Below, piece after piece: positions 8,128 through 55,548 of a stretch of 64,000 bases of DNA (positions are counted from its first letter, which is position 1; the number at the start of each line of letters is the position of its first letter). The translations under genes and the position numbers were made by a program. This stretch comes from Chloroflexota bacterium. Lineage in GTDB: Bacteria > Chloroflexota > Dehalococcoidia > UBA2247 > JAUWOP01. The stretch lies in the NCBI GenBank assembly GCA_030612045.1, contig JAUWOP010000001.1, forward strand, positions 26,767-90,766, read 5' to 3'. Under the pieces are notes generated by a model. That model ran no database searches and was not told where the DNA came from. It saw only the letters and a program-made list of their open reading frames with translations.

Positions 8128-8138
8128 AAACTTTGCGA

Positions 8139-8482: not shown

Positions 8483-9484
8483 ATGATGGTAACCTCAGTT
8501 TCTGAAAAGCTGATACCAGTAGTAGACCTGGGTGGCTCAAAAATTATTGCTGCTTTGGTCTCCTACAATGGCGAGATTATTGCCGAAGAGCATGTTGCTA
8601 CCCTGGCAGAGCAGGGTCCCAATGCAGTAATTGACAGGATGCTCGCTACCCTCAAAGGGGTCATTTCTAAGGCTAACCTGTCTCTATCTTCACCTGCTAT
8701 TTCTAGGTTGGTCATTGCCTCCGCCGGAGCCATTGATAAGCATAATGGGATAGTAACCTCCTCTCCCAACCTTCCAGGGTGGCAAAATATCACCCTGAAA
8801 GAGACTGTGGAAAAGGAGATGGGACGGGAGGTTCTCCTTATAAACGATGCTAGCGCCGCCGCAATAGGCGAGCATCGCTTCGGTGCAGGCAGGGGAGTGG
8901 ATAATCTCATCTATGTTACAGTAAGCACCGGTATTGGTGGAGGAATCATTACAGATGGCAAATTATACACTGGCGTCTCGGGTAGTGCCGGTGAAATAGG
9001 GCATATGTGTATCAATCTCAATGGTCCTCATTGTAGCTGTGGTAACATAGGATGCCTAGAAAGCCTTGCTTCAGGGAAAGCTATAGCAAGAGAAGCCCAG
9101 AGGCGCATTACTCAGGGGACAAAGAGTCTCATTCTTGAATTAGCCGAAGGAGAGATACATAATATCAATGCCAGAATAGTTTCTGATGCTGCTCGAAGGG
9201 GAGATACTCTGGCAATAGAACTTATCTCCCAGGTAGCTACTTATCTTGGAATAGGACTGGTAAACCTGGTCAACATCTTCAATCCAGAGATGATTATCAT
9301 CGGAGGAGGAATGTCACAAATGGGAGAGATGCTTCTCTCTCCCGCCCGCCAAATTGTGGAAGAAAGAGCCTACCGACTACCCGCTGAGGCAGTGCAGATT
9401 GTGCCCAGTGAACTGGGTGATTATTCCAGTATCTTGGGCAGTGTTGCCTTCCTCCAGTTAGATGAGTTTAATTCGGTGCGTTGA
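8483..9484 (+). CDS. ROK family sugar kinase (glucokinase-like)
   Basis: VVDLGGSKI N-terminal ATPase motif, ...IGGGI..., and the ROK zinc motif HMCINLNGPHCSCGNIGCLE. Confidence 0.8.
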   Translation: MMVTSVSEKLIPVVDLGGSKIIAALVSYNGEIIAEEHVATLAEQGPNAVIDRMLATLKGVISKANLSLSSPAISRLVIASAGAIDKHNGIVTSSPNLPGWQNITLKETVEKEMGREVLLINDASAAAIGEHRFGAGRGVDNLIYVTVSTGIGGGIITDGKLYTGVSGSAGEIGHMCINLNGPHCSCGNIGCLESLASGKAIAREAQRRITQGTKSLILELAEGEIHNINARIVSDAARRGDTLAIELISQVATYLGIGLVNLVNIFNPEMIIIGGGMSQMGEMLLSPARQIVEERAYRLPAEAVQIVPSELGDYSSILGSVAFLQLDEFNSVR

Positions 9485-9645
9485 CAATCAAGATTAGCTA
9501 ATGATAGACTAAAAAGTAGTGGCTTGGATACTTTAGTATGCTAGCTAGCATGGAAGGTTGAGTATCGAGCTAAAGTAGGTTTGTGAAGGTGCAACTCCTG
9601 TTAATTATCCCAGTAAGTTAGACTGTCAACTAAAAGGAGAGTGAG

Positions 9646-10740
9646 ATGCAGGTTACACTAAGCGTGATCAAAGCTGATGTTGGAGGGTTCGTAGGTCATT
9701 CCAGCTCACATCCTGAAGTCTTAGATAAAGCTAGGAAATCGATGGATAAAGCTAAGAAACAAGGAATGCTCATTGATTATCATGTTACTCGCTGCGGAGA
9801 TGACCTGCAGTTGATTATGACCCATGAGATGGGGGAAAATAATGGTGCTATACACAAACTGGCATGGGATACCTTCCTGGAGTGTACTGAGGTTGCTAAG
9901 CGGCTGAAGCTACATGGAGCAGGTCAGGACCTCCTTAGTGACGCCTTTTCGGGTAATGTAAAGGGAATGGGTCCCGGGGTAGCCGAGATGCAGTTTGAAG
10001 AGAGAGAGGCTGAGACCATAATTATCTTTATGGCAGATAAGACTTCATCTGGAGCATGGAATTTGCCCCTCTATAAGATGTTCGCTGACCCATTTAATAC
10101 TATTGGACTGGTTATCGCCTCCAATATGCATAAGGGGTTTTCTTTCGAGGTACATGATGTTAAGGGACATAAGAAGATTGTGTTCCATGCCCCTGAAGAA
10201 ATCTATGATATGTTGGTCTTCATGGGAGCACCAAGCCATTATGCTGTCAAGGCAGTGTATCACCGTGAGACTGGAGAGATTGCTGCTGTCTCCTCTACTG
10301 AGCGTCTTTCTTTAATTGCGGGAAGGTATGTGGGTAAGGATGACCCTGTGTGTGTAGTTCGCTCCCAGGGACAATTTCCTGCCGTGGGAGAAATCTTGGA
10401 GCCCTTCACTATGCCAACATTGGTAGAAGGTTGGATGCGTGGTTCACACCATGGACCATTGATGCCAGTAGCTGTGGAGCAATCTAATCCTAGTCGTTTC
10501 GATGGTCCCCCTAGGGTGATTTCCCTGGGGTTCCAGATTGCCAATGGTATGCTGGTAGGACCCCGAGATATGTTCGATGACCCCTCCTTCGATGATGCTC
10601 GCCACCTGGCAAACCAGGCTGCTGAGTACATGAGGCGACATGGACCCTTTGAGCCCCATCGCCTTCCCCTGGAAGAAATGGAATACACTACTATGCCTCA
10701 GGTGATGAAAAAACTGGAGGTAAGGTTTACAGATTTGTGA
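9646..10740 (+). CDS. fbp: Fructose-1,6-bisphosphate aldolase/phosphatase (class V FBPase, archaeal type)
   Basis: MQVTLSVIKADVGGFVGHSSSHPEVL...DYHVTRCGDDLQLIMTH is the characteristic N-terminus of the bifunctional FBP aldolase/phosphatase. Confidence 0.8.
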   Translation: MQVTLSVIKADVGGFVGHSSSHPEVLDKARKSMDKAKKQGMLIDYHVTRCGDDLQLIMTHEMGENNGAIHKLAWDTFLECTEVAKRLKLHGAGQDLLSDAFSGNVKGMGPGVAEMQFEEREAETIIIFMADKTSSGAWNLPLYKMFADPFNTIGLVIASNMHKGFSFEVHDVKGHKKIVFHAPEEIYDMLVFMGAPSHYAVKAVYHRETGEIAAVSSTERLSLIAGRYVGKDDPVCVVRSQGQFPAVGEILEPFTMPTLVEGWMRGSHHGPLMPVAVEQSNPSRFDGPPRVISLGFQIANGMLVGPRDMFDDPSFDDARHLANQAAEYMRRHGPFEPHRLPLEEMEYTTMPQVMKKLEVRFTDL

Positions 10741-14911: not shown

Positions 14912-14943
14912 GGGTAGGTTGACCGATGTCGGTCAACCTACCC
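14912..14943. repeat. Family C 32-bp palindrome, copy C1 (centre TG)
   Basis: gggtaggttgaccga-tg-tcggtcaacctaccc, in the intergenic gap between hspR and clpC. Confidence 0.7.
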
Positions 14944-25882: not shown

Positions 25883-27112
25883 CTAGAATTTGGGGTTTGA
25901 TGAGGACTGATGCCTCATTTCTCTGAAGAGTTGCCACGAGAGTGGTATCAATTTCACCATTTCTCTGGCTCCGAGATGCCTTAACCCACTACGTAATAGA
26001 TTACCATGCCAGTCGAAGGAGAATTCTGATGATTCCAATAAGGTAATATGGAGATTCCTCGATTTTACCAGTTGAAACATCTGCTCTATTTGTTCGTCAT
26101 CAAGATATTCAAATAAACGGCGTGCCCTATATCCTGTCCTTAGCTCTCTTCCTAGCTTCTTACGCCATCTCCTCTCGTATGGCAGGAGGGCGTGGGCAGT
26201 AAAGTCACCTTCAAGGAAAGCCTCATGAAGGGTATCAACTGCATCCTGTGCACAGAGGAGACCATAGTATATTCCCCCACCGGTAGTAGGCTTTACCTGC
26301 CCGGCAGAGTCGCCTACCACGATAAACCTCTCTCCATAGGTCTGTGGCAAGGGCAGGAGAGGAATGCCCCCATAGCTGATAGCTGATGGCTGATAGCTGT
26401 CAGCTATCAGTGGGATTATCTTACCCTGTGCTGAGAGGGTATCTATAAGTTGTCTCAAATAGGCACCAGGCTTACGCCGAGAAATCACACCTGCTAATGC
26501 CCTCCCATGTATTGTGGGGATGAGCCAGGCAAAGAAACCTGGGGCAATATCGTTACCCAAGTATATCTCTGTTTCCTCAATAGTAGAGTATCCTGATAAC
26601 TCAACCTCCAGTTGAGCCCCGGCTATGAAGTCCTGTATCTTTCCTAGCCCTAGCCTCTGGGGGAGGGAGGAACCAAAACCGGTGGCGATGACCACTACCT
26701 TGCTCTCTATCACTCCCTCTCCCGCTACAATTCGAACTGAATCCCTGCCTCGTTTAATATCTCTTACATGGCTACCCCATACATAGAGCGCCCCGGCTCT
26801 CATGGCTCTCTCCGCCAGTAGAGAATCAAGTTTCTCTCTACATACTATGTAAGCCTGTATCTCTTCCTTCCATATCTTGATGACCTCTCCTGAAGGGGAG
26901 AAGAAGCTGGCAGAGCTTGCCGGTCGAAAGACTATATTACCATCCAGGGAGAATCTTTCCATGCACTCTCTGCTAATAATGCCACTGCAACATATTGCTT
27001 CTCCAGCTCGAGCATGTTCCTCAAAGACAATAACATCATATCCCAGGGAAGCCATACCCTGAGCCACATAACTCCCCACTGGGCCCGCTCCTACTATAGC
27101 TACATCATACAA
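25883..27112 (-). CDS. Geranylgeranyl reductase family FAD-dependent oxidoreductase
   Basis: MYDVAIVGAGPVGSYVAQGMASLGYDVIVFEE Rossmann FAD motif with a GGR-like body. Contains the in-frame D repeat encoding LIADSYQPSAISY. Confidence 0.75.
   Translation of the reverse strand: MYDVAIVGAGPVGSYVAQGMASLGYDVIVFEEHARAGEAICCSGIISRECMERFSLDGNIVFRPASSASFFSPSGEVIKIWKEEIQAYIVCREKLDSLLAERAMRAGALYVWGSHVRDIKRGRDSVRIVAGEGVIESKVVVIATGFGSSLPQRLGLGKIQDFIAGAQLEVELSGYSTIEETEIYLGNDIAPGFFAWLIPTIHGRALAGVISRRKPGAYLRQLIDTLSAQGKIIPLIADSYQPSAISYGGIPLLPLPQTYGERFIVVGDSAGQVKPTTGGGIYYGLLCAQDAVDTLHEAFLEGDFTAHALLPYERRWRKKLGRELRTGYRARRLFEYLDDEQIEQMFQLVKSRNLHITLLESSEFSFDWHGNLLRSGLRHLGAREMVKLIPLSWQLFREMRHQSSSNPKF
26374..26410. 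repeat. Family D repeat with a perfect 10-1-10 palindrome, copy D3, lying in frame inside the geranylgeranyl reductase CDS
   Basis: agctgatagctgatggctgatagctg-t-cagctatcag. The 36-nt block is read through as about 12 codons. Confidence 0.6.
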
Positions 27113-27140: not shown

Positions 27141-28235
27141 TCAAATATACTCCACCCGGCACCCTCTTCTTCTCATTACCCCCAGTGTTATAGAAAGTGC
27201 TTCGGCATCATGGTCACAGGAAGATAGCACTATCATTGCCGAAGGTAGAGGGTGCATCCCGGAGACCTTTTGCAATGCCTGTGCTGCAGGGTGATTCTCT
27301 GCTCCTCCACAAATAGCTCTATATTCTAATTCCAGGAGTGCTGCTAGTTTCTTCGCTGCCTCAGTCTCAGCTTCCTTCAGTCGATTCAGGGTTTGCCTCA
27401 ATATTTGGATGTTAGGTGGTTGGAGGAACCTAACCCCAAGTTCAACTATTATTATCTGTGGTATCAGTTGCAGCGCTTTCTCAAGTGCTGCTGTAGGGGG
27501 CATGGTAGGGGTTACTTCTATAACCTCCTGATGGTTATATGCTGCCAGTATCACAGGAATGGAATTTCTCGCCAGAGTCATCACAGTGGAGACAAGATTG
27601 AGCGCCAGTTTATCAGCCGCCTCAGCATCACTTACCGCCAGGTTGACCACCACTACAACAGAGCCTCGCGGTGCCTCCAGATATTCCTTCACCACCAGAC
27701 TCCTGAGTTTTGCCGTATGCTTCCAATCTATGTTTATCAAACTATCGCCAGGTTGAAAGAGACGGCTGCTATAGTACTCATCTTTGGCACCATACCTGAG
27801 TTTGGTAGATATTATAGTGGCAGTTCCACCTCCTCTTCCTGCTTCTCCTGCCAGGTATCTTCTTGCCAGCCACTCAGCATATCTAGCTCGGGGAATCACT
27901 ATCATCTCTGCCAGTTCCAGCCTCTGATTTGTCTGAATTAACCCCCATGGGTCAAGGATAGATGCCTGGAGTAATAACTGGGAGGGACCCGCCAGGGGTG
28001 GGGTGAGGAACGCCTCTATACTTACCTCATCTTTAATCTCACACTCGGTGGGTGAGGTGAGCCTAACCCATGGATAGGGGGAACTTAGTTTGGCACGCAG
28101 TGGCATACCATGATGGTTCCAAGCCTTTCCGGAAAGTGATTTTGTCTCACCAGCTACTACCTTGATTTCAGTCTGAGTACTCTCTAAAGGTGTAGTGGAA
28201 AGGTGATGCATGGTGCGGTAGGTGAGCGCCAGCAA
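27141..28235 (-). CDS. DUF58 domain protein (MoxR-partner, vWA-like)
   Basis: FQPGDSLINIDWKHTAKLRSLVVKEY is the DUF58 signature region. Confidence 0.65.
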   Translation of the reverse strand: MLALTYRTMHHLSTTPLESTQTEIKVVAGETKSLSGKAWNHHGMPLRAKLSSPYPWVRLTSPTECEIKDEVSIEAFLTPPLAGPSQLLLQASILDPWGLIQTNQRLELAEMIVIPRARYAEWLARRYLAGEAGRGGGTATIISTKLRYGAKDEYYSSRLFQPGDSLINIDWKHTAKLRSLVVKEYLEAPRGSVVVVVNLAVSDAEAADKLALNLVSTVMTLARNSIPVILAAYNHQEVIEVTPTMPPTAALEKALQLIPQIIIVELGVRFLQPPNIQILRQTLNRLKEAETEAAKKLAALLELEYRAICGGAENHPAAQALQKVSGMHPLPSAMIVLSSCDHDAEALSITLGVMRRRGCRVEYI

Positions 28236-28692
28236 GTAGGCTGCCAGTAAGGCTCATAGTATAGTCACCTAGCAAGAGGGCAATAACCAGCACCACACTC
28301 AGAAACAGCGCCATTGCCTTGAATACAGGGGTAGGTTTTCTGCCCTCCACAGTGGTAGGTTGACCGACATCGGTCAACCCTACCCAAAGGGGGATAAAGG
28401 GCTCTCCTTGAGCATTCCTCCTCAGCTCCCAGTCCAGCAGAGGAATAGCAGGTATTACTATAAAGGCAGACGCTATGCTAAAAGGTTGAGGTATTATTGC
28501 TTTGAAGGTCAGTGGCAATAATGCCAGGCTCAGCAAAATCAGGGGTAGCCCTACTCTGGGACTGACTGTCTTCCACAGAAAGTATGCCTGTAACAAGAAT
28601 AGTGCTATTGCTACCGCAGAGTAGGGCATTGGTGAGAGCACCATCACCACTACTGTGGCAAGCATGATGTATATGCGAGAGAAAAGGTTCAT
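28168..28692 (-). CDS. Hypothetical integral membrane protein (about 4 TM) between moxR and the DUF58 gene; contains an in-frame family C palindrome
   Basis: Strongly hydrophobic helices. Palindrome C2 encodes the loop GLTDVGQPTTVEG. Confidence 0.45.
   Translation of the reverse strand: MNLFSRIYIMLATVVVMVLSPMPYSAVAIALFLLQAYFLWKTVSPRVGLPLILLSLALLPLTFKAIIPQPFSIASAFIVIPAIPLLDWELRRNAQGEPFIPLWVGLTDVGQPTTVEGRKPTPVFKAMALFLSVVLVIALLLGDYTMSLTGSLLAGAHLPHHASPFHYTFREYSD
28355..28386. repeat. Family C palindrome, copy C2 (centre CA, one extra C), in frame inside the membrane-protein ORF
   Basis: ggtaggttgaccga-ca-tcggtcaaccctaccc. Confidence 0.65.
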
Positions 28693-28737
28693 AATCCCCC
28701 TAACCCCCTTTAGAAGAGGGGGAAAGAGGGGGATTAT
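28693..28737. repeat. Family B hairpin element, copy B1 (moxR / membrane-protein spacer)
   Basis: aatccccctaaccccctttagaagagggggaaagagggggatt, a nested inverted repeat. Confidence 0.6.
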
Positions 28738-28758
28738 TCTTCTTTAATGATTTGGACA

Positions 28759-29709
28759 TTACACTCCCCTGGGCACAGGGACCCTCTCTATAGCTCTCTC
28801 AATAATGTCTCGTGGAGTTATCTCTCCCACAATATCTGTCTCCTGATTCAGGTGAATGCGGTGCTCCACTACCGGGCGGATAAGCCGCTTCACATCATCT
28901 GGTATCACGAAATCCCGTTCTTGTAAGAAGGCTAGCGCCCGTGCCCCCTTATATAGAGAGATGCTGGCTCTAGGTCCAGCACCACTGGAGACATCCTCAT
29001 CTCCCCGAACATGATTTACTATTCTAACAATATAATTCTCTATCTCAGGGGAAACAAACACCTTGGTGACAGCCTTTCTAAATTCTATCACCTCAGCAGG
29101 GCTTATCACTGGCTCTATCTGGAGGATGTCAAGGCTGTCAATCCTGCGAAGTATCTCGACTTCCTCTGCCCCCGGAGGATAGTTGCTCTCTGCATAGAGC
29201 ATGAAACGGTCAGCTTGAACCTCAGTAAATGGGTAGGTTCCTTCAGCTCCATATTTGAGCTGGGTGGCAATAACCAGGAATGGTTGTGGGAGGGTGTGGG
29301 TCACCCCTTCTACTGTTACCTGCCCCTCCTGCATTGCCTCCAGTAGAGCTGATTGAGTTCGCGGGGTAGTAAGATTTAGCTCATCAGCTAACACCACATT
29401 AGCAAAAATGGGTCCTGGGATGAACCGTGACTTACCATTGAGGTCGTAAATATTGAACCCTGTGATGTCACTGGGGAGTATGTCAGGGGTGAATTGAATG
29501 CGTTTGAATTCACCACCCAGGGCGAGGGCGAAGCTCTTAGCAATAGTAGTCTTGGCAGTGCCGTTGGCACCCTCAATGAGGATATGTCCCCCGCTGAGGA
29601 TTGCCACCCCCAGTAGCTCCTTCAGCTCTGCCAGCCCCACCACTACACGGGAGACCTCATCCACTATCTTCCCAAATGCTTCAAGTGATACCTTAGGTGT
29701 TTCAATCAT
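28759..29709 (-). CDS. MoxR-family AAA+ ATPase
   Basis: HILIEGANGTAKTT Walker A, DELNLTTPRTQSALLEAMQE Walker B / sensor, length 316 aa. Confidence 0.85.
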   Translation of the reverse strand: MIETPKVSLEAFGKIVDEVSRVVVGLAELKELLGVAILSGGHILIEGANGTAKTTIAKSFALALGGEFKRIQFTPDILPSDITGFNIYDLNGKSRFIPGPIFANVVLADELNLTTPRTQSALLEAMQEGQVTVEGVTHTLPQPFLVIATQLKYGAEGTYPFTEVQADRFMLYAESNYPPGAEEVEILRRIDSLDILQIEPVISPAEVIEFRKAVTKVFVSPEIENYIVRIVNHVRGDEDVSSGAGPRASISLYKGARALAFLQERDFVIPDDVKRLIRPVVEHRIHLNQETDIVGEITPRDIIERAIERVPVPRGV

Positions 29710-29727
29710 AGTTCACTCCTTCTGGTA

Positions 29728-29769
29728 GTTGTCAGCATTCAGTTATCAGCCATCAGCATCCAGCTTTTG
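29728..29769. repeat. Family D repeat, copy D4 (immediately upstream of the moxR start)
   Basis: gttgtcagcattcagttatcagccatcagcatccagc. Confidence 0.4.
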
Positions 29770-29807
29770 TATAAGTCCTGTAAACATGCGTTTCACTTCC
29801 TGTAAGC

Positions 29808-29917
29808 GTTCACCCCCTTTCATGTCGTTGCGAGGAGCGTGGCGACGAAGCAATCTCTTCCACCCCACCGAGATTGCTTCGCCTTCGGCTCGCAATGACA
29901 CAGGTGAACGGTTACCA
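29808..29917. repeat. Family A element, copy A2, with GTTCACC...GGTGAAC termini
   Basis: gttcaccccctttcatgtcgttgcgag...ctcgcaatgacacaggtgaacggttacc. Confidence 0.7.
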
Positions 29918-30023
29918 CTTCTTTTACTTGACCATCCAATGCCTCATGGGTTTTTATATCCAGGTATCCCAACTCTTGAGACAGAAGTAGATGATATTCG
30001 TAAGTGTTCACCTGCTCCCTATC

Positions 30024-30106
30024 AAATCCCCCTTAGTCCCCCTTTTCTAAAGGGGGAAAAGAATGTAAGCCTCCCCCTTTTCTAAAGGGGGACTAAGGGG
30101 GATTTT
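30024..30106. repeat. Family B composite element, copy B2 (two CCCCCTTTTCTAAAGGGGG hairpins inside an outer inverted repeat)
   Basis: aatcccccttagt-cccccttttctaaaggggg-...-cccccttttctaaaggggg-actaagggggatt. Identical over more than 80 bp to the reverse complement of copy B5 at 52330. Confidence 0.7.
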
Positions 30107-30206
30107 TCTTCTCGGGGAAAGGATAGCGTAGCCTTATATACAGACAGTACCATTCCGTGAGCCTTCTGCCATACTTCCAAGCTTCTAAAATCTCTCATTT
30201 TCAGTT

Positions 30207-30327
30207 GCCGTTCACCCATGTCATTGCGAGCGAAGCGAAGCAATCTCACCCCCCCCACCACCGAGATTAGCTTGCGTCTTCGTCGCTACACTTCTCGCAA
30301 TGACATGAGAGTGGGTGAACACTTACC
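30207..30327. repeat. Family A element, copy A3, flanked by a 13-bp direct repeat attttcagttgcc
   Basis: gttcacccatgtcattgcgagcgaagcgaagcaatctc-acccccccaccacc-gagattagcttgcg...tctcgcaatgacatgagagtgggtgaacacttacc. The direct repeat sits at 30198-30210 and 30328-30340. Confidence 0.65.
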
Positions 30328-30328
30328 A

Positions 30329-30423
30329 TTTTCAGTTGCCAGCTATCTTTTTAGCTTTCAGTTATCAGCTTTCAGCCTCCACGCCCCTGCTGATGGCTGA
30401 ATGCTGATAGCTGACAGCTAAAT
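30329..30423. repeat. Family D repeat cluster, copy D5, running up to the stop of the DUF4350 gene
   Basis: ttcagttgccagctatctttttagctttcagttatcagctttcagcc...gctgatggctgaatgctgatagctgacagct. Confidence 0.45.
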
Positions 30424-31322
30424 TAATGTTTCCATACTCGCCTCCAGGTCAGTGCTAACACCACTACGATTATACCCAGAACAACCAGCGGTGCGTCAAG
30501 AACACCGCGAGTCTCCTCCAGTCCCTCCTTGGCTACAGTCAATGCCCCTTCAGGAAGATGCGACTGGTCGAGCAGAACCTGACTATCCGAGCCGGTGGCA
30601 TTCCTGAGGAACACAGCGTTGTCCTCCATACCTTCCATACTGTTAATCAGGATGCTGGGGTCAGCTACCAGAATAACCCTTCCTGAGCCGTATGCAGTGG
30701 TGGCAATTACCGGGAGGGGACCCTTAGGCTCATCTTCGTCCCAATTTAGGTTGCCATTCTCATCCACGAAGCTGAAGTGGGAGGATTGAGCGATGACTTC
30801 AGCCTCAGAAACGTCCTTCAAAGCAGTAGCGTGGTCGAATACAATGGCTTCCACACCTGTGACCAGAGGGGAGGGGGAGAAGTCCGTTATTTGGGGAAAC
30901 TGCTCATTCTTGTAATTGAACAGGGGGTCCAGGAGGGGTGTGCCATAGAACCTTACACTCAACCCCATGTGCTCCAGCACCTCATTTCCGCAGCCATAGT
31001 CATCCATAAGCAGCAGGGTTCCCCCACCAGAAACATATAATTTTACCTGCTCTAGTTCAGCAGTAGAGAATTTAGTATAGGGTATCAGCACCAGGGTGGT
31101 GCCTGAAGGGTCAGCAGGGAGGTCTGCCAGGGAGTTCACCCCGGTGGCGGTAAACTGAGCAGTGAAATCCGTCGCACCGTTCCAGGAGGGATTGTCCTCT
31201 CTGAAATCGTCTATTACCGGATAGAGCCAGACGAGCACACCCAGCGCTATCACCGTTACTACCCCGGAAATCCACAATACCCTACGCCAGTTTACCCTTT
31301 TGTAAAGCTCATCATTACCCAC
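30423..31322 (-). CDS. DUF4350-like protein with N- and C-terminal TM helices
   Basis: TM VLWISGVVTVIALGVLVWL at the N-terminus, a large soluble domain, and TM PLVVLGIIVVVLALTW at the C-terminus. This layout is typical of DUF4350 proteins found with MoxR and DUF58. Confidence 0.5.
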   Translation of the reverse strand: MGNDELYKRVNWRRVLWISGVVTVIALGVLVWLYPVIDDFREDNPSWNGATDFTAQFTATGVNSLADLPADPSGTTLVLIPYTKFSTAELEQVKLYVSGGGTLLLMDDYGCGNEVLEHMGLSVRFYGTPLLDPLFNYKNEQFPQITDFSPSPLVTGVEAIVFDHATALKDVSEAEVIAQSSHFSFVDENGNLNWDEDEPKGPLPVIATTAYGSGRVILVADPSILINSMEGMEDNAVFLRNATGSDSQVLLDQSHLPEGALTVAKEGLEETRGVLDAPLVVLGIIVVVLALTWRRVWKH

Positions 31323-31334
31323 AAATAAAACTCC

Positions 31335-31428
31335 TCTTCCCTAAGGGGGGGGGAATGGAAGTCCCCCTTCCCTAAAGGAAGATCCCATCAGTCCCCCTTT
31401 TCTAAAGGGGGATTTAGGGGGATTACAA
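31335..31428. repeat. Family B element, copy B3 (contains a G9 tract)
   Basis: ccctaagggggggggaatggaagtcccccttccctaaagg...gtcccccttttctaaagggggatttagggggatt. Confidence 0.55.
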
Positions 31429-31716
31429 ATTCTCATACACTCTTTCGACAGCTCCACTAAGGTTCTCAAACACCTCTCTATCTGAAAACCGCAAGACTTT
31501 CAATCCATGCTCCTTCATATAATCATCCCTAATCTTATCCTTCTTAACCCCCTCATCATTGTAGTGCTGGCTACCATCAATTTCAATAATTAGCTTTGCT
31601 TTTGGACAGTAGAAATCGACTATATAGTTACCTATAATCCTCTGCCTATAAAATTGATACCCTTTCAACTGCTTTCTCCTCACCTTAGACCAAAACAGCC
31701 TTTCTGCATCAGTCAT
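31423..31716 (-). CDS. DUF559 / Vsr-like PD-(D/E)xK endonuclease-domain protein (97 aa)
   Basis: ...YQFYRQRIIGNYIVDFYCPKAKLIIEIDGSQH...LRF matches the D...EIDG DUF559 core. Confidence 0.6.
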   Translation of the reverse strand: MTDAERLFWSKVRRKQLKGYQFYRQRIIGNYIVDFYCPKAKLIIEIDGSQHYNDEGVKKDKIRDDYMKEHGLKVLRFSDREVFENLSGAVERVYENL

Positions 31717-31796
31717 ATTATTTCGTAGTTGTCTTGAGTATTCTTGTAGATTTGTATTGTAAAACAGCGAAATATCTTACTCCTGCAAAGAGGTTC

Positions 31797-31835
31797 TAAT
31801 CCCCCTCTTTCCCCCTTTTCTAAAGGGGGATTACG
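31797..31835. repeat. Family B hairpin, copy B4, 3 nt beyond the stop of the 652-aa gene; possible terminator
   Basis: taatccccctctttcccccttttctaaagggggattacg. Confidence 0.5.
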
Positions 31836-31837
31836 TC

Positions 31838-33796
31838 CTACGCCAGCCCACTCTTTAGCCCCCTTTGCACCTGCTGAGACAGGTTCTCGGCTCGGGTAAT
31901 CTCCTCATCCCCGGGTGCAACCGCAGAATACAACGCCTTTTCTGCTATTGCTGTCAGTATAGTGAAGTCCTCCTCCACATCTCCTAAACCAGTGCGGCAG
32001 TCTTTCAGAAACTCCCTCATAGTCATATGAGGCTCAAATGCCACACTGCTGACTGCCTCTACTATCTCCACCGCATCATAGTATGCCACCACAGCCCCTC
32101 CCCCTTGGGGTCGTTGTGGGGTTGCATTGCTCGCCTCATCTTTCGCTAACTGCTCTACGGGTGGCGCGACCGTAACTATTTGACCTGGTAGAGATATATC
32201 CACTTGTCCCCTTCTGCGGGTGTACAACACTACACCAATGCATACCAGTGCGACAAAGAGGAATCCGATGTTGATAATATTAGCTACAAAGGTTTTTACC
32301 TCGGTTTGAGTCTGGTCATACCATGGCTCGGCAGGAATGACCGTCACCTCTACAGCCTGATTTCCCATGTAAGTAGGGTCCAGAGGAATATGGAGAACAG
32401 CTCTAAACTCACCATCTTCTCCAGTAATTGTCTCCACTGATTCCCCTCTCAGTGTTAAGGTTACTACGGCACCCGGTACTGGAGCCCCTCCAGAAAGGAC
32501 ACATCCCGTTATCGTAATATCACTGGAGGAGAATACGATATAGGGAGAGCGGACTTCAACCTGGGTCACCATCTTTGTTATCGTTAAGGTTATTTCTTCC
32601 GATACACCAGCATATCGCTGCCAGGAGGCAACAGAGACATTAAGGGTGTGGTCTCCTACGCTTGTATCAGACGGTGGTGTCAATATCAGGGTGAATTGCC
32701 CATCTTCTCCAGTTTTACCCGAAGCCTGAGGTAGAGACCCATCATCAAGGAATACCTCCACTATCCTTCCGTTCAGAGAAGAGCCATCAGAGGTTATTCG
32801 CCCGTTGACACTCATGGGGAATCCCGGGTGTGCTTCCTCCGGAACCGTCAATTCCAGATAGGTGTCGTAGAAACCTATCTGGATAGTTTCCGTAGCAGAA
32901 GTTCCCTGATAGATATCTTTGTCACTATCTGCTGGCGTATACACTGCCCTGACTTCCATTGTGGAGACATACTTGTAGGGGACAGTCAAACTCTTACTGT
33001 ATTTGCCCTCCTCATCAGTTGTCACTGTTCCCTGGAGCGAGTCTACTATGTAGAGGGCTATTACCCTACTACCCAAGGGGCTATTATCCTCACTATCCTT
33101 ATCCTTAAGCATTCCAGAAAGTGTCACCTCATTGCCCACAAATATCTCCTCGGCGGGCACATTAAGACTCAGTTGCGTAGGGGTGAGGTCTGCCTCTTTT
33201 TCTCTCACCTGCTCATCGAGTTGCTCCTGAAGGGATTCATATCGGTCTTTTAGGTCATGCACCTTCTGCACCATACCATCCATATTATCATACGCCTTCT
33301 TCAAAAGACCGGAAGCGGCAGAGGCGAAGACTCCCACCTTTTCACCCAGTGTCCTGGTAGCTGTAGTGAGCTCTGCCAGCAGATTCTCCGCCTCAGTAAT
33401 CTCCGTCCCCACTTCGTCGAGTTTATCCTGAGCCTCACTGAGACGATTCTGGCTAAGAAGGGATGCTGCCTCATCAAGCAGGGTATCTATACTATCCAGT
33501 TTGGCGGAGACATCAGATGTCAGGCTGTTGTAGAGATTGATTATATCCCTCAAATCGTCAGGGATATTAGCTCCATCCAACTGTGCCAGCAGGTTATCAA
33601 CATCAGCAAAGTTTCCTTCAGAGATCAGCCCCATAATCTCACCGTAGTAGTTGAGTAATGAGATAGCACCAAAGGTATCCGTTGCCGTCTCAGGGTCTTC
33701 ATGCGGACTGAAGGGTAACCCCGCCAGCACTGGTGCCCCGGGAAGCAGAGTAGCTATCAGTATAATGAGTAATAAAATGGTGATTAATTTCTTCAT
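31838..33796 (-). CDS. Large secreted protein anchored by one C-terminal TM helix: signal peptide, about 180 aa of coiled coil, three CarboxypepD_reg/Ig-like beta domains, TM, and a cytoplasmic DUF4129-like tail
   Basis: MKKLITILLLIILIATLLPGAPVLAG signal; heptad-rich LxxL region; repeats such as ITITGCVLSGGAPVPGAVVTLTLRGESVETITGEDGEFRAV; TM IINIGFLFVALVCIGVVLY followed by RRRG; tail ...YYDAVEIVEAV...MTMREFLKD...FTILTAIAEKALYS. Confidence 0.55.
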   Translation of the reverse strand: MKKLITILLLIILIATLLPGAPVLAGLPFSPHEDPETATDTFGAISLLNYYGEIMGLISEGNFADVDNLLAQLDGANIPDDLRDIINLYNSLTSDVSAKLDSIDTLLDEAASLLSQNRLSEAQDKLDEVGTEITEAENLLAELTTATRTLGEKVGVFASAASGLLKKAYDNMDGMVQKVHDLKDRYESLQEQLDEQVREKEADLTPTQLSLNVPAEEIFVGNEVTLSGMLKDKDSEDNSPLGSRVIALYIVDSLQGTVTTDEEGKYSKSLTVPYKYVSTMEVRAVYTPADSDKDIYQGTSATETIQIGFYDTYLELTVPEEAHPGFPMSVNGRITSDGSSLNGRIVEVFLDDGSLPQASGKTGEDGQFTLILTPPSDTSVGDHTLNVSVASWQRYAGVSEEITLTITKMVTQVEVRSPYIVFSSSDITITGCVLSGGAPVPGAVVTLTLRGESVETITGEDGEFRAVLHIPLDPTYMGNQAVEVTVIPAEPWYDQTQTEVKTFVANIINIGFLFVALVCIGVVLYTRRRGQVDISLPGQIVTVAPPVEQLAKDEASNATPQRPQGGGAVVAYYDAVEIVEAVSSVAFEPHMTMREFLKDCRTGLGDVEEDFTILTAIAEKALYSAVAPGDEEITRAENLSQQVQRGLKSGLA

Positions 33797-34059
33797 AAAA
33801 GTGCAACACCCCAGATTATCTCTGTCACTGCCGTTGCCACTATAACAAGAAAACCGGCAAAGAGTATATAATTTATGGCAGAGAGGCTGCGCCGTGCCCG
33901 AGGGTCAAGGGAAGAAAATAGCACTGTGAGGGCAAGGGTCTCTACCAAATAAACTGAGAGGTATATCTTTAGCTGTGACACCTCAGCAAATGCCATAATG
34001 ACAGTAGTAATGGCGAAGAGGGATGTCAGCCACAGGATATAGCGATTATAGAGAGTCAT
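33793..34059 (-). CDS. Small membrane protein (88 aa, about 3 TM), translationally coupled to the upstream gene by an ATGA overlap
   Basis: MTLYNRYILWLTSLFAITTVIMAF... The start ATG overlaps the stop of the 34056..34805 gene. Confidence 0.4.
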   Translation of the reverse strand: MTLYNRYILWLTSLFAITTVIMAFAEVSQLKIYLSVYLVETLALTVLFSSLDPRARRSLSAINYILFAGFLVIVATAVTEIIWGVALL

Positions 34060-34805
34060 GCTTGTATCTCCAGCGTGATTCTGCTCTTGTTTTTCTCTTC
34101 TACCTCCTGCTGTATTATGAGAGGTTTGTTGACTACCTCGGCAGCAATAGATGCTACTATGGAGGTGATGGGTGTTCCCAGCCACTCGTAGACCTGGATA
34201 TTCCTGCTTTCTTGATAAGGATGGGAGACCTCCACCTCAATATCACTATCGTTCATACTAATTACCCTGACACCACTTGCCAAATTGAGCAATCCTATAA
34301 GGATATAGTGCAGAGAAGCCTCCAGCCCCTCAGAGGTGGCGGAGGCGACTCCCTCCAGTTTAGTCGCACTTAGTGAACCCGGCGTAGTTACCAGTATCCC
34401 CACATCCTCAGGGCGGGAGCCAAACTTGACTATCATACGATGTGGGAGTGCCCGGTCAATACGAGGAAGCTCCGGGTTAGCATGAAGGGGTATGAGAGCC
34501 TGTGGCTGCCCACTGCCTGTCAGAGAGGAAGGAAGATAAATCGCTTTGGCTCTCAGCCCCACTTCCTCTACCAGAGCAGCGATATTTGCCATGCCTGTCT
34601 CCAGGAAGGTAACGCTTGTCTCCGGGGAAACGGCAGGTATACTCTTCCCCAGGGCGAGGCAAACTGCCCCCAGGATTATCATGGAGATTCCCATGGCTGT
34701 CAGGGGCGTGTCTAATAATAACAAATAGGCAGTAGAGGTAAGCCCTATTCCTCCCACCAGTAATCCTATGCCCAATAGAAGATAAATACTTTTATTACGG
34801 CGCAT
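34056..34805 (-). CDS. Hypothetical membrane protein (two N-terminal TM helices plus a soluble domain of about 170 aa)
   Basis: MRRNKSIYLLLGIGLLVGGIGL...MGISMIILGAVCLALG..., no family recognised. Confidence 0.45.
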   Translation of the reverse strand: MRRNKSIYLLLGIGLLVGGIGLTSTAYLLLLDTPLTAMGISMIILGAVCLALGKSIPAVSPETSVTFLETGMANIAALVEEVGLRAKAIYLPSSLTGSGQPQALIPLHANPELPRIDRALPHRMIVKFGSRPEDVGILVTTPGSLSATKLEGVASATSEGLEASLHYILIGLLNLASGVRVISMNDSDIEVEVSHPYQESRNIQVYEWLGTPITSIVASIAAEVVNKPLIIQQEVEEKNKSRITLEIQA

Positions 34806-34837
34806 ATTATGAGTTCTCTCTGTTTATTTTCGGTACT

Positions 34838-34871
34838 CAGGTAGGTTGACCGACGTCGGTCAACCTACCTG
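34838..34871. repeat. Family C palindrome, copy C3 (perfect 34-bp, centre CG, contains GACGTC)
   Basis: caggtaggttgaccgacgtcggtcaacctacctg. Confidence 0.7.
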
Positions 34872-34877
34872 TAGCCT

Positions 34878-36233
34878 TCACTTATTCTCATCCCACACAG
34901 GGTGCATTACCAATCCTGTAGGAGGCTTCGGGTAGAAATGGGTGGACTTCTGAGGCATACGGTCACCAGCATCAGCTATTGCCATGACACTGGATACAGG
35001 CATAGGATTAATCAAAAAGGCTAGCTGATACTCTCCGGAGTCTACTCGAGATACTGCTTCTAGAGCATCTCTTGTATAGTCCAGGGAATCTTCCTCACGA
35101 GAAGGAGAATCTATACCAATGATGCCCTTCAAAATTATCTCATGGAGTACACTGACATCAAGCTCTCTCCATGGCTCACTGTGCTCTACAGGCAGCATCT
35201 CTCGAAGAGTTAGCATCTTACGAGGCAAGAGCAGATGCAGACACCCCTTATCGAGTCCATAGAGACCAAGGGCTATTGCCTTGTCTCCCTGGTGGTGCAG
35301 AACATCCAGCCAGTTCCTCAGGATTTCCTCCTGTGAAGAACCATTACGAGGGAGCTCTTGTATATGAAACAACTCCTCTAACCTGCTTGTCAACTCAGTA
35401 GGGGTCATGACCACAGGGAGACGAACCAAACGATGAGTAGGCAGCATAAGTATTCCAGGGTCTGCCGCATCCATAATATTTATCATCACAAAATTGAATC
35501 GTTCTTCCCCTGTATAATGGGGCTGCCTCAGTTGCTGCTCCGCCTGATACCTCAAGGCAGTTTCGTAGCGGTGATGACCATCTGCGATATACAAAACCCT
35601 ATCATTGCAAAGTGCAGCGATTTTATCTATCCGTAGTTCATCATCTATTATCCACATGTTGTGTGTCACACCATATTGGTCCGTCACCTCTAGCACTGTC
35701 TCATTCTGGACTAAGTATGGCAGGAGTGATACAAGACCTTCTCCTTCAGAAGGGAGCATTGCCAGAACAGGACTCAGATTGACATGACAGGAGCGCAGAA
35801 GATTGAGACGGTCAACTGCTGGCTTGGGGAGAATAATCTCATGAGGGCGTATCCTGCCACTACTCCACTGTGCCAGTCTGACACTGGCAGCAAGCTCCCA
35901 GCGATTTTGGGTAACCCCCTGATAGCTAAAGCGGTGATTGAAGATATAAAAGGCAGGGTTTTCCCCTCGTATCAATATTCCTTGCTTCAGCCAGTCCTTC
36001 AGTGTAGTTGCCGCTCGTGTGTATCTATTGTTCTCAGCCGAATCTGAAGGATAGACCTCGCCCAATTCTAGTCTTATCACATTATATGGGCTCTTGTGGC
36101 AATAGAGTTGCTGTTCCTTTGGCGATATAATATCATAGGGAGGCGCGATTATTTGTGAGAGGTCTCCTACTTTCTCTAAATTATAGCAAAGCCCCTGAAA
36201 GGGGCAGATATTCTGTAGCTTCATATTCATCAC
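34878..36233 (-). CDS. DUF1015 family protein
   Basis: ...LQNICPFQGLCYNLEKVGDLSQIIAPPYDIIS... resembles the DUF1015 N-terminal motif. 451 aa. Confidence 0.65.
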   Translation of the reverse strand: MMNMKLQNICPFQGLCYNLEKVGDLSQIIAPPYDIISPKEQQLYCHKSPYNVIRLELGEVYPSDSAENNRYTRAATTLKDWLKQGILIRGENPAFYIFNHRFSYQGVTQNRWELAASVRLAQWSSGRIRPHEIILPKPAVDRLNLLRSCHVNLSPVLAMLPSEGEGLVSLLPYLVQNETVLEVTDQYGVTHNMWIIDDELRIDKIAALCNDRVLYIADGHHRYETALRYQAEQQLRQPHYTGEERFNFVMINIMDAADPGILMLPTHRLVRLPVVMTPTELTSRLEELFHIQELPRNGSSQEEILRNWLDVLHHQGDKAIALGLYGLDKGCLHLLLPRKMLTLREMLPVEHSEPWRELDVSVLHEIILKGIIGIDSPSREEDSLDYTRDALEAVSRVDSGEYQLAFLINPMPVSSVMAIADAGDRMPQKSTHFYPKPPTGLVMHPVWDENK

Positions 36234-39962: not shown

Positions 39963-40165
39963 ATGTCATTACGAGCATCTGACCCCGCCGCTACGCTGAG
40001 CGGGTTATATCAGAAAGAAGTTTTGAGTTTCTTAGGAGGAGCGTGAGCGACGAAGCAATCTCGGAAACAACAGTAAAGTGGATGGCTATGAGATTAGCTT
40101 GCGTCTTCGCCTTCGGCTCGCAATGACGGGTGGAGTTTCATCACCCGCAACCTAATTTAACATTG
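39963..40165. repeat. Family A long-form composite element, copy A4
   Basis: catgtcattacgagc + module cccgccgctacgctgagcggg...cttaggagga + gcgacgaagcaatctc ... gagattagcttgcgtcttcgccttcggctcgcaatgac + gggtggagtttcatcacccgcaacctaatttaacattg. Same architecture as 52224-52497. Confidence 0.7.
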
Positions 40166-40217
40166 CCAAGGTAAACTTTATCGACCATCTGGCATCGTTT
40201 TAGAATTTAAAAGAATC

Positions 40218-45926: not shown

Positions 45927-47046
45927 CTTTCACAACACCTGTGCCTGATGCATCATCGGCTAGATTTTTGATAATGAGCTCACACATTTCCCTTGTTCCT
46001 ACCTGAGTTTTACCTTGCTCCATTATATCATAGGTGCGGTACCCCTGTTCCAAAACCTTGCTTATAGATTTCTCAATCATTTCTGCTTCTTTTTCCAGAG
46101 TGAAGGAGTAGCGAAGCATCATACCACAACTCAGGATAGTAGCTATAGGATTTACCAGATTCTGTCCTGCCCTCCGAGGAACACTGCCATGAATAGGCTC
46201 ATACATACCAAAGGTTTGCTCACCACTCTGAGGTATCCCTGATAAGCTAGCAGAAGCTAACATTCCCATAGAACCTGCCAGCATTGATGCCTCATCAGTG
46301 AGTATATCACCGAACATATTCTCGGTAACAATAGTATCAAAATAGATTGGCTGTCGAATTAGTCTCATAGCGCAGGCATCTACTAGCATGTGGTCCAGCT
46401 CTACATCAGGATATTCCTCAGCTACTTCAGTAACTACCTTGCGCCACAATCGGGAGGATTCCAGGACATTTGCTTTGTCTACCGAGGTTAATTTCCCGCG
46501 TCGTCTCCTCGCCAGTTCAAACCCTACCCTTACTATGCGCTCAATTTCCTGTTCAGAGTATGCCATAGAGTCTATAGCCCGTCTGCCACGATTAGTACGC
46601 CATTGCCTCTTAGGCCTACCAAAATAGACTCCACCGGTGAGTTCACGTACAAACATGAGGTCTACATCCTTAATAATCTGTGGTTTCAGAGTAGTAGAGT
46701 CAGCCAGCACAGGAAGAACCTTTACAGGGCGGAGATTAGCGAAAAGCCCCAGTTCCTTACGCAGTGCCAGGAGTCCATCCTCAGGACGAACTCTAGCCTC
46801 CGGGTTGTCCCATTTGGGACCACCTACCGCTCCCAGAAGTACAGCATCACTTCCATTACACAATTTCAGGGTTTGGGGGGCGAGAGCCACACCAAACTCA
46901 TCAATTGCCGTTCCACCCACCAAATCATAGTGCAGATTAAATTCATGTCCAGACCTCTTCGCAACTACTTTCAAAACCGCAACTCCAGCGGTGATGACCT
47001 CTGGACCTACACCATCACCCGGCAGAACTGTAATATCAAATCTCAT
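45919..47046 (-). CDS. leuB: 3-isopropylmalate dehydrogenase (beta-decarboxylating dehydrogenase family)
   Basis: [14 protein letters not shown]-terminus and family motifs. Adjacent to leuD. Confidence 0.8.
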
Positions 47047-52223: not shown

Positions 52224-52497
52224 GTAACCGTTCACCCTGTGTCATTGCGAGCATCCGACCCGCCGCTGCGCTGGGCGGGTTATATCAGAAAGGAACTCTG
52301 AGTTCCTTAGGAGGAGTGTAGCGATGAGTAATCCCCCTTAGTCCCCCTTTAGAAAAGGGGGAGGCTTACATTCTTTTCCCCCTTTAGAAAAGGGGGACTA
52401 AGGGGGATTTGATGGAGGATGAGATTAGCCTTGCGTCTTCGCTCCGCTCGCAATGACGGGTGGAATTTCATCACCCGCAACCTAATCTAACATTGTC
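52224..52497. repeat. Family A long-form element, copy A6, with a complete family B composite (copy B5, 52330-52410) nested inside
   Basis: gtaaccgttcaccctgtgtcattgcgagc + cccgccgctgcgctgggcggg module + [B5] + gagattagccttgcgtcttcgctccgctcgcaatgac + gggtggaatttcatcacccgcaacctaatctaacattg. Confidence 0.7.
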
Positions 52498-52671
52498 GAG
52501 TTACTAAATGACCTCGAAGTTTCTTGGTTGACACCCAATTTAGGGATAGGATACTATCTATACTGTGGGTAGTTGTTCAAATCTTTGTTACAGAATTTGT
52601 ATAGAGCACAGAGGAAGTTATTACCATTCCTTTGATAAGTCTAGAGTGTTTCAGCGCGAGGAGGGCTGTCT

Positions 52672-52992
52672 ATGCCTACAGAAGTTACAAGCAGCATAGG
52701 AACCATCGAGACTGAGGCTGAGAAGATACTTGTGGAGGCTAGAGCTGAAGTCAGTAAGATTTTGCTTAAAGCTAAAGAGGAGAGCGTCAAGATTCTGTCC
52801 TCTGAATTACCCATGGATGAAACTAAGGTGGAGTGTGAGCATATTATACAGAGTGCGAGAGAAGAAGCTGGTAGAAAAGCTGAAGATTCCAGAGAAAAAG
52901 CCTCCAAAATCAGGGCTGATATTAATAACAGGTTAGAGGGAATTGTGGAGCGTATGGCAGCTATCATCGCTACTGGGGTAGACCCCAGGTGA
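52672..52992 (+). CDS. atpH: A/V-type ATPase subunit H (small coiled-coil subunit)
   Basis: 106-aa charged helical protein at the head of an H-I-K-E-C-F-A-B-D operon. Confidence 0.55.
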   Translation: MPTEVTSSIGTIETEAEKILVEARAEVSKILLKAKEESVKILSSELPMDETKVECEHIIQSAREEAGRKAEDSREKASKIRADINNRLEGIVERMAAIIATGVDPR

Positions 52993-54992: not shown

Positions 54993-55008
54993 AGGTGAGG
55001 AGTAAAAG

Positions 55009-55491: not shown

Positions 55492-55548
55492 AAAAGAGGG
55501 CTAAACTGTAGCCACCATAAGTAATCATACAATGAAGGGAGGCATGAA

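Follow-up and report, generated by a model that had tools for sequence, protein, structure and literature searches.

A six-gene MoxR operon of predicted membrane and surface proteins shared by Dehalococcoidia and Bathyarchaeia

The window analyzed here, a stretch of 64,000 nucleotides on contig JAUWOP010000001.1 of a Chloroflexota bacterium, carries on its minus strand, between positions 27141 and 36233, a run of open reading frames (ORFs) that had been read, from the letters alone, as a nine-gene cluster of envelope proteins built around a MoxR-family AAA+ ATPase. Our comparisons indicate that the conserved operon consists of six genes, coding for a DUF7982 protein, a DUF8044 protein, a 652-residue surface protein, a DUF4350 protein, the MoxR ATPase and a DUF58 protein (Table 1), and that it is, judging by homology to archaeal loci, a bacterial (Dehalococcoidia) member of the predicted arCOG01314-type system. 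What such a system does is a separate question, to which we offer a tentative answer below: a MoxR-driven membrane complex that would assemble or maintain a proteinaceous, probably glycosylated, surface layer.

The conserved six-gene unit

The contigs that carry homologues of the 652-residue and DUF7982 proteins share the order DUF7982, DUF8044, a protein of about 650 residues, DUF4350, MoxR and DUF58. In particular, when the window proteins were compared by tblastn with 40 locus entries, representing 37 distinct loci (designated by L numbers), 30 of the distinct loci had the six genes colinear on the same strand, with amino-acid identities of 25-67%, and the identical order was found in L044, a Bathyarchaeota contig of 221 kb retrieved after this matrix had been made. 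Five of the seven distinct loci without the full set lie on contigs that end within the cluster, and the other two are L023, a single-cell genome with no MoxR or DUF58 after DUF4350 though approximately 3.4 kb of sequence remains, and L031, where DUF7982 is the one gene of the six that is present. This recurrence of order and strand is conservation far beyond chance. The relatives are almost all metagenome-assembled genomes of Dehalococcoidia, Dehalococcoidales or Dehalococcoidaceae, and a scan with one genome per species yielded 33 loci, i.e. 33 species-representative genomes, of which 32 belong to Dehalococcoidia/Chloroflexota (one labelled only 'uncultured bacterium') and one to Bathyarchaeia. 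The window itself is matched by an ENA contig, NODE_28 (78 kb), and by a Logan contig.

Table 1. Features of the six-gene operon and of its immediate surroundings in the window.
Feature	Positions	Strand	Basis or remark
Gene 1, DUF7982 protein, 249 aa	34056-34805	-	precomputed hit PF25939
Gene 2, DUF8044 protein, 88 aa, 3 TM	33793-34059	-	precomputed hit PF26161
Gene 3, 652-aa bitopic surface protein	31838-33796	-	Pfam, alignment, AF2 model
Gene 4, DUF4350 protein, 299 aa	30423-31322	-	Pfam 1.6e-22
Gene 5, MoxR-family AAA+ ATPase, 316 aa, cytoplasmic	28759-29709	-	AAA_3 + AAA_lid_2
Gene 6, 6TM-Ig-vWA DUF58 protein, ~517 aa reconstructed	27141-28692	-	alignment with 10 single-ORF homologues
DUF559 (Vsr-like endonuclease) ORF, 97 aa	31423-31716	-	Pfam 7e-31; insertion, outside the system
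713-bp nested palindromic repeats	29710-30422	.	between genes 4 and 5; outside the system
DUF1015 gene	34878-36233	-	Pfam 1.4e-77; upstream neighbour, outside the system; 0/40 related loci
aa, amino acids; TM, transmembrane helices; Ig, immunoglobulin; vWA, von Willebrand factor A; AF2, AlphaFold2.

Why are there six genes and not nine? Namely, DUF1015 and DUF559, which the original prediction had counted as members, were not found in the relatives, and its '4-TM' and 'DUF58' ORFs proved to be a single gene. As for the former, tblastn found none of DUF1015, DUF559, a geranylgeranyl-reductase-family gene, CorA and Vut1 in the 40 related locus entries, and the nine-gene unit was consequently rejected. 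As for the latter, the DUF58 homologues in 10 loci are single ORFs of 511-563 residues, with which the gene calls of the related loci agree; their N-terminal ~170 residues align to a 174-residue ORF of the window (28168-28692) and the remainder to an ORF of 364 or 356 residues (27141-28235 or 27141-28211). At the junction, L010 reads SYTMSLTAALLTAY, and the window sequence translates as DYTMSLT and, one frame on, as AAYLLALTY. Frame analysis and alignment both fit one extra G, a 1-nt insertion at 28244-28245, inside the sixth transmembrane (TM) segment. A separate 4-TM gene is thus rejected by the alignment to single-ORF homologues, and the reconstructed protein has about six TM segments, not four, with N- and C-termini both predicted to lie inside by hydropathy and the positive-inside rule. 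Such a topology would leave the immunoglobulin (Ig)-like and von Willebrand factor A (vWA) domains in the cytoplasm, beside MoxR. The match of ORF 27141-28235 to Pfam DUF58 is marginal (2.9e-5, 23.8 bits against a cutoff of 23.4), and the precomputed DUF58 matches of the homologues are mostly weak or faint, that of L008 being unmarked (E-value <=1e-5) and L009 having none. In the window and the 10 homologues alike, the metal-ion-dependent adhesion site (MIDAS) reads N-L-[SA]-[VA]-x in place of D-x-S-x-S.

The other elements of the earlier description fared better. All of the minus-strand ORFs it listed are present where it had placed them, and a Pfam search recovered its domain calls (DUF1015, DUF559, DUF4350, MoxR and, marginally, DUF58). 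Hydropathy predictions agree with the TM layout it had drawn for the DUF4350, 652-, 249- and 88-residue proteins, and the ATGA overlap it reported can be read directly from the sequence, in fact twice, since DUF8044 is coupled in this way to gene 1 (34056-34059) and to gene 3 (33793-33796). Its expectation that more than the MoxR-DUF58 pair would be conserved held as well, the gene-neighbourhood comparison giving six colinear genes in the 30 loci and L044, and these conserved neighbourhoods support its broader idea of a coherent system that links the cytoplasmic MoxR ATPase to envelope proteins.

The MoxR protein matches AAA_3 with 170.6 bits (1.9e-50; cutoff 27) and AAA_lid_2 with 68.1 bits (5.7e-19; cutoff 22.7), both its Walker A (GANGTAKT) and Walker B (LADELN) motifs are intact in the translation, and its identity amounts to 50-67% in all complete loci. 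Its N-terminus additionally matches bpMoxR with 29.2 bits against a cutoff of 27, over profile positions 5-82 of 205 only. In the window and in the 30 distinct loci it has an adjacent vWA-fold partner, namely the DUF58 gene directly downstream. The DUF4350 protein is predicted from hydropathy to have an N-terminal TM helix with its N-terminus inside, an extracytoplasmic GldG/IFT52 (GIFT)-like domain at about residues 34-272 and a C-terminal TM helix. The similarity to ABC_transp_aux/GldG is weak and below the family cutoff (21.3 against 34.7 bits), and the family profile gave a weak IFT52 match, and none that was significant, in the PDB. The family has 537 homologues, the named ones being from Dehalococcoidia and Bathyarchaeota. 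We also considered a catalytic cysteine in the DDYGCGN motif of this protein and rejected it, as this residue is not conserved and the family has no invariant cysteine.

The 652-residue protein has a Pfam match to CarboxypepD_reg (2.7e-10), while its DUF4129 tail stays sub-threshold (6.9e-4; 20.1 bits against a cutoff of 24.8). A signal peptide or anchor spans residues 7-25 and is followed at residues 31-35 by a P-H-x-x-P motif (PHEDP or PHQNP) that is invariant in the family alignment. The original prediction had proposed modelling this protein and searching the model with Foldseek. In the AlphaFold2 model (predicted local distance difference test score, pLDDT, 77.5), three long helices at 80-201 precede three beta-sandwich domains of Ig- or macroglobulin (MG)-like type at 207-505 and a TM helix at 507-529; a disordered linker then leads to a DUF4129-like tail of three helices on the cytoplasmic side (567-650). 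The Foldseek matches of the beta-sandwich domains are tandem Ig domains of adhesins and the MG domains of complement and alpha-2-macroglobulin. The protein has 11 word-indexed homologues only.

The proteins of genes 1 and 2 have no match in our local copy of Pfam, and precomputed matches assign them to the newer families DUF7982 (PF25939) and DUF8044 (PF26161). The former is predicted to have two N-terminal TM helices, with the N-terminus inside, and a cytoplasmic alpha/beta domain of about 190 residues, for which a V4R/Bet3/BcsD-like fold is a candidate. This is a small family, with 891 representatives at E<=1e-3 among 1.84 billion. The DUF8044 protein has three TM helices by hydropathy, and its tblastn matches lie directly downstream of DUF7982 in 35 of the 40 locus entries. 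The family profiles of the 652-residue, DUF7982 and DUF58 proteins gave no significant match to PDB sequences, NCBIfam has no model for five of the six proteins, and in the literature we found no mention of DUF7982 or DUF8044 and nothing relevant on MoxR in Dehalococcoidia.

Archaeal counterparts and known systems

Sequence comparison finds homologues of all six parts in archaeal loci, be they haloarchaeal or Bathyarchaeial. In the 221-kb Bathyarchaeota contig and three similar loci, the six genes are preceded by two DUF1616 genes, and an ABC/FtsX transporter is also present in three of these four Bathyarchaeia loci. In a neighbour-joining tree of MoxR and DUF4350, built without bootstraps, the four archaeal loci cluster together, nested as a single clade within the bacterial loci, and the window groups with L010 and L007. 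A tblastn search with DUF4350 against 72,556 plasmids returned 32 records, and all 10 genera listed (30 records) are haloarchaeal. Because the listed plasmid matches are all from haloarchaeal genera, the DUF4350 version of the window appears closer to archaeal forms. The haloarchaeal plasmids carry the DUF4350-MoxR pair, and homologues of the other four components adjoin it in at least one of three plasmid loci. In particular, the pair lies beside DUF58, DUF1616, GT4/GT2 glycosyltransferases and a PIG-L deacetylase in Halorussus, while on a Halobellus plasmid it lies beside ABC/FtsX genes and a 703-residue protein, to which the 652-residue family aligns over 551 columns with an hhalign probability of 97.4%. 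According to local hidden Markov models, the gene immediately upstream of DUF4350 on the plasmids of Haladaptatus and Halobellus codes for a DUF8044 homologue, and DUF7982 homologues lie near DUF4350-MoxR in Haladaptatus and, by a weak match, in Halorussus.

These counterparts change the standing of two features that had been singled out as special to this cluster. The fusion of a DUF4129 module to a coiled-coil and Ig-like ectodomain is not peculiar to the window, as the same architecture stands beside DUF4350-MoxR on the Halobellus plasmid. Similarly, of the three extra membrane proteins, two (DUF7982 and DUF8044) do belong to the conserved core and have haloarchaeal homologues as well, whereas the third is just the N-terminal half of the DUF58 gene. 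In other words, both features appear, on these comparisons, to be family-wide.

Is the system then an undescribed one, as had been suggested? A complex of this type was in fact already predicted by Makarova, Galperin and Koonin in 2015 (PMC5898192). In their analysis, the neighbourhoods of arCOG01314, i.e. of DUF4350, contain a MoxR ATPase, Ig-vWA proteins, Ig-domain 'S-layer' proteins, DUF1616 and small membrane proteins, and they proposed that this set forms a new complex for secretion or membrane remodelling, present in archaea 'and several bacteria'; they also reported an HHpred similarity of DUF4350 to GldG and to the GIFT domain of IFT52. We base the likeness on homology to archaeal loci, in place of an arCOG profile assignment, and it extends to most of the parts. 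Namely, the DUF4350 protein of the window has the same N-terminal signal or TM segment and C-terminal TM segment, a MoxR/GvpN-type ATPase and an Ig-vWA (DUF58) protein share one predicted operon, the Ig-domain surface protein has its counterpart in the 652-residue protein with its three beta-sandwich domains, and there are small proteins with 2-3 TM helices, as well as DUF1616 neighbours in the relatives of the operon. That said, the window host is bacterial (Dehalococcoidia) and has no adjacent DUF1616 gene, the Ig-vWA protein, called secreted in that paper, is by our prediction anchored in the membrane, its soluble part facing the cytoplasm, and the V4R/Bet3-like domain that we predict for DUF7982 is not described there.

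More distant likenesses can be drawn to several other systems. The RavA-ViaA, CbbQ-CbbO and NorQ-NorD pairs share an AAA_3-type ATPase gene beside a vWA-fold partner, the expected adaptor; however, the clients in the window are apparently co-encoded membrane proteins with large ectodomains and not a soluble enzyme, and its vWA protein has a degenerate MIDAS and approximately six TM helices. The MoxR-vWA-beta-propeller ternary systems and the Esr pathway of Actinomycetales resemble the window in the bpMoxR-like N-terminus of MoxR, the vWA partner and a filament-like surface protein, but the window is without their beta-propeller, kinase/phosphatase, FHA protein and effector. In actinobacterial neighbourhoods the same four Pfam families, DUF4350, DUF4129, MoxR and DUF58, co-occur. 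Finally, the DUF4350 ectodomain has a weak sequence similarity both to GldG/ABC_transp_aux and to the GIFT domain of IFT52, though the former scores under the family cutoff and the operon has no GldA/GldF-type transporter.

The arCOG01314/MoxR/vWA module is a widespread archaeal membrane system known by prediction only. What the present analysis adds is a compact, sharply delimited version of six genes, common to Dehalococcoidia and Bathyarchaeia and with all of its parts traceable to haloarchaea, which supplies a minimal parts list of an arCOG01314-type system. It further adds a testable topology model, with the ATPase, the vWA domain, the DUF4129 tail and the V4R-like domain predicted inside and the helical stalk, the Ig domains and the GldG-like domain predicted outside, and it suggests haloarchaea as genetically tractable hosts in which the system could be tested.

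Function of the predicted complex

MoxR ATPases and their vWA adaptors act as assembly chaperones, as in RavA-ViaA, CbbQ-CbbO and NorQ-NorD. Cultured Dehalococcoidia, like archaea, are not known to make peptidoglycan, and the wall of these cultured members is S-layer-like. Taking these together with the predicted topology, we infer all of the contacts between the proteins, the remodelling driven by ATP and the role in a surface layer in the following scheme. The DUF58 protein, through its cytoplasm-facing Ig-like and MIDAS-less vWA domains, would recruit the cytoplasmic MoxR hexamer to the membrane. On the same cytoplasmic face would lie the DUF4129-like tail of the 652-residue protein, the V4R/Bet3-like domain of DUF7982 and the small three-TM DUF8044 protein, while the helical stalk and three Ig-like domains of the 652-residue protein and the GldG/IFT52-like domain of DUF4350 would project outside of the cell. 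As an adaptor, the vWA protein would dock MoxR onto those tails and domains of the co-encoded membrane proteins that face the cytoplasm, and ATP hydrolysis would then remodel or assemble these clients, namely the co-encoded bitopic membrane proteins. The outcome might be to build, anchor or maintain a protein surface layer in organisms without a murein wall, such as Dehalococcoidia and archaea.

The surface-layer part of this scheme draws its support from adjoining glycan genes and from recurring DUF1616 neighbours. In 16 of the 37 distinct loci, in two clades, GlmS, one or two NTP-transferase/hexapeptide (GlmU-like) genes and PGM (phosphoglucosamine/phosphohexose mutase) lie convergently downstream (named loci: L004, L008, L010, L015, L018, L021, L022, L026, L028, L033-L035, L037, L040 and L042). 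Wzx/Wzy/Wzz/DegT genes adjoin the operon in L007, polysaccharide or glycosyltransferase genes in L003 and, as mentioned, glycosyltransferases the DUF4350-MoxR pair of Halorussus; DUF1616 is adjacent in the four Bathyarchaeia loci, three Dehalococcoidia loci and Halorussus. Several points, however, weigh against the scheme. The sugar-nucleotide genes are convergent with the operon and not co-transcribed with it, and they are common mainly to related genomes, so that common descent, and not function, may account for their synteny; in the window, the operon has neither glycan nor DUF1616 neighbours. The vWA MIDAS is degenerate (N-L-[SA]-x-x), and the adaptor chemistry may for this reason differ from that of the characterized pairs. 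The cytoplasmic orientation of the vWA domain is a prediction from hydropathy parity, whereas Makarova et al. predicted a secreted Ig-vWA protein, and we found in the literature no experimental follow-up of the arCOG01314 prediction. Weighing all of this, we hold the assembly or maintenance of a probably glycosylated surface layer to be our favoured reading, if only tentatively and at slightly less than an even chance. Were this role to hold, it would be relevant to the way in which archaea and wall-less Chloroflexota construct their envelopes. A more far-reaching version of the favoured reading, which we consider rather unlikely, would have the six-gene module as an archaeal-type envelope-biogenesis machine, exchanged between Bathyarchaeia or other archaea and the murein-less Dehalococcoidia, whose AAA+ complex assembles or anchors a layer of protein and glycoprotein and is part of what permits an archaeon-like wall, with the V4R/Bet3-like domain of DUF7982 binding lipid or a lipid-linked glycan at the inner face of the membrane.

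Could the same six proteins do something else? Makarova et al. preferred a protein secretion system. In this reading the membrane components would make up a conduit, the export of large surface proteins would fall to DUF4350, joined in some lineages by a MacB-type ABC/FtsX transporter, and MoxR would regulate assembly. This published prediction (PMC5898192) agrees with the ABC_tran and FtsX genes adjacent to the operon in the Bathyarchaeia loci L006, L039 and L044 and in Halobellus, and with the weak similarity of DUF4350 to ABC_transp_aux/GldG and IFT52. On the other hand, none of the Dehalococcoidia loci has an adjacent FtsX, the only ABC-like matches there being weak ones (26-29% identity) in L031 and L034, none of the components resembles a known channel or secretin, the proteins have just 1-6 TM helices each, and no candidate cargo gene is consistently linked, all of which makes secretion distinctly unlikely as the function. 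We give still less credence to a surface-sensor signalling module like the MoxR-vWA 'ternary' conflict systems or Esr, where the Ig ectodomain would sense a cue that MoxR and the vWA protein relay inward. A filamentous surface protein does occur together with MoxR and vWA in Esr (bioRxiv 10.64898/2026.09.08.750141), the MoxR N-terminus of the window passes the bpMoxR model (29.2 against 27 bits), an HTH(XRE)-CARDB membrane protein is encoded upstream in L015, with related CARDB tblastn matches upstream in approximately 11 Dehalococcoidales loci, and toxin-antitoxin genes flank the Bathyarchaeia copies. Yet neither the window ORFs nor the related loci contain a beta-propeller, kinase, phosphatase, FHA or effector domain, and the window and most of the loci sit among ordinary metabolic and housekeeping genes instead of in a defence island. 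PADLOC gives only a generic AAA match, and an anti-phage defence system was rejected on that account.

Several MoxR-vWA pairs mature metalloenzymes, as do NorQ/NorD, CoxD/CoxE and the MoxR of methanol dehydrogenase, and the classical role of MoxR would accordingly be the maturation of, or metal-cofactor insertion into, a membrane-bound or extracytoplasmic redox enzyme. The multicopper oxidases encoded upstream in L008 would fit, as would a molybdopterin oxidoreductase in the same position in L010, but no redox enzyme is consistently linked across the loci, the metal site of the MIDAS is degenerate and four of the six partners in the conserved set are membrane proteins and not enzymes, and we regard this role as very improbable indeed.

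Insertions in this copy and neighbouring genes

It had been noted that the intergenic gaps are packed with repeats, and this is borne out. In the relatives, gene pairs 3/4, 4/5 and 5/6 overlap or abut, while in the window the same junctions hold gaps of 515, 713 and 66 nt. The first contains the DUF559 ORF, bracketed by inverted hairpin repeats at 31392-31426 and 31795-31830 (the TCCCCCTTTTCTAAAGGGGGA / GGGGGATTA element), and the last contains a further copy of the hairpin. DUF559 is absent from the 40 related loci, where genes 3 and 4 overlap, and the ORF is the sole DUF559 copy in the window. With its bracketing repeats, 31392-31830 resembles a small mobile cassette that has landed between genes which ordinarily overlap. 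The 713-bp insertion is bracketed by a 33-nt imperfect inverted repeat (29726-29758 and 30388-30420) and includes an 84-nt hairpin element (30021-30104) that is 100% identical, in inverted orientation, to 52330-52413, an identity which suggests that the element spread recently. Eight of the 12 copies of the GGGGGATT motif in the window cluster in 28693-31825. Finally, a family of 30-nt near-perfect palindromes (GGTAGGTTGACCGACGTCGGTCAACCTACC) is found at 28354-28383, 14913-14942, 34840-34869 and 46799-46828; the first of these lies within an in-frame insertion of approximately 36 nt that lengthens one of the cytoplasmic loops of the DUF58 protein by some 12 residues, and a perfect copy of it, at 34840-34869, lies 35 nt upstream of gene 1, in the 72 nt that separate this gene from the DUF1015 gene.

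The palindrome is absent from all of the loci of other organisms, among which the hairpin motif occurs once, in L016. Further copies of the repeats are found in other parts of the window, and on these grounds we rejected the repeats as a part of the system; a known non-coding RNA in the gaps was likewise rejected, no Rfam family or tRNA being found in the region. On sequence grounds, the intergenic repeats appear to be invaders specific to this genome, and the window copy illustrates how genome-specific palindromic elements can colonize operon junctions and even coding sequence. In the same category may belong two blocks of about 90 nt that recur in the same order, at 86-90% identity and approximately 12.3 kb apart, in the intergenic stretches at 39964-40173 and 52240-52503; these may represent another repeat or miniature inverted-repeat transposable element (MITE) family or else a duplicated regulatory region.

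Given the inserted palindromic repeats and DUF559 and the frameshifted DUF58 gene, the window copy may be impaired. The frameshift is also present in two other assemblies, one of which, the ENA assembly L001 from the same organism, differs from the window elsewhere by a 6-nt indel and five single-nucleotide polymorphisms (SNPs), and it is for this reason probably real in this population. A programmed +1 frameshift at 28244-28245 we rate as unlikely, no slippery or stop-codon context being recognizable there. Could it be, then, that the whole operon is decaying and non-functional in this genome, a possibility that concerns this copy only and is compatible with any of the functional readings? 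Apart from the frameshift inside TM6, common to slightly different assemblies, one can point to the translational coupling lost at three junctions to the repeats and the DUF559 ORF, and to the palindrome within coding sequence. Against this, all of the other ORFs are full length relative to their homologues and the inserted palindrome keeps the reading frame; the starts that have been displaced are preceded by Shine-Dalgarno-like sequences, the halves of the DUF58 protein might still be produced as two polypeptides, and there is a small probability that the frameshift stems from a sequencing error. We therefore consider decay a real but doubtful prospect.

As for the differences between L001 and the window themselves, the indel lies in DUF4350 (30909) and the five SNPs fall within 62 nt of the 652-residue gene (32088-32149), at about codons 550-570, which cover the disordered linker on the cytoplasmic side and the beginning of the tail. 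This pattern indicates, as far as the two sequences go, strain-level microdiversity concentrated in the operon. Another split DUF58 gene is seen in the Bathyarchaeia-like locus L003 (13810-15370; 291 + 219 residues), at a different site between the Ig-like and vWA parts; either an indel error of long-read sequencing or a disruption that arose independently could account for it.

Some of the neighbouring genes deserve mention as well. The protein encoded upstream of the operon in L015, on the same strand (7822-9759), has 645 residues, with an N-terminal XRE-type helix-turn-helix (HTH) and a CARDB-like domain, and could be a membrane-spanning regulator. Upstream tblastn matches to a CARDB protein of L009 in approximately 11 other Dehalococcoidales loci suggest homologues, which are absent from the window. 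In the window, 28 nt downstream of the operon, there is a geranylgeranyl-reductase-family flavoprotein (25883-27112; TIGR02032, 3.6e-55), which has a weaker similarity to archaeal digeranylgeranylglycerophospholipid reductases and is not conserved beside the operon in the relatives. Farther away, 52989-62000 holds a gene set of a V/A-type (archaeal-type) ATPase, with subunits I, C/AC39 and A and further ORFs at 59934-61993, and within it a direct repeat of about 440 nt (55052-55490 and 55592-56027; 68% identity) may, by its sequence, be a duplicated proteolipid subunit.

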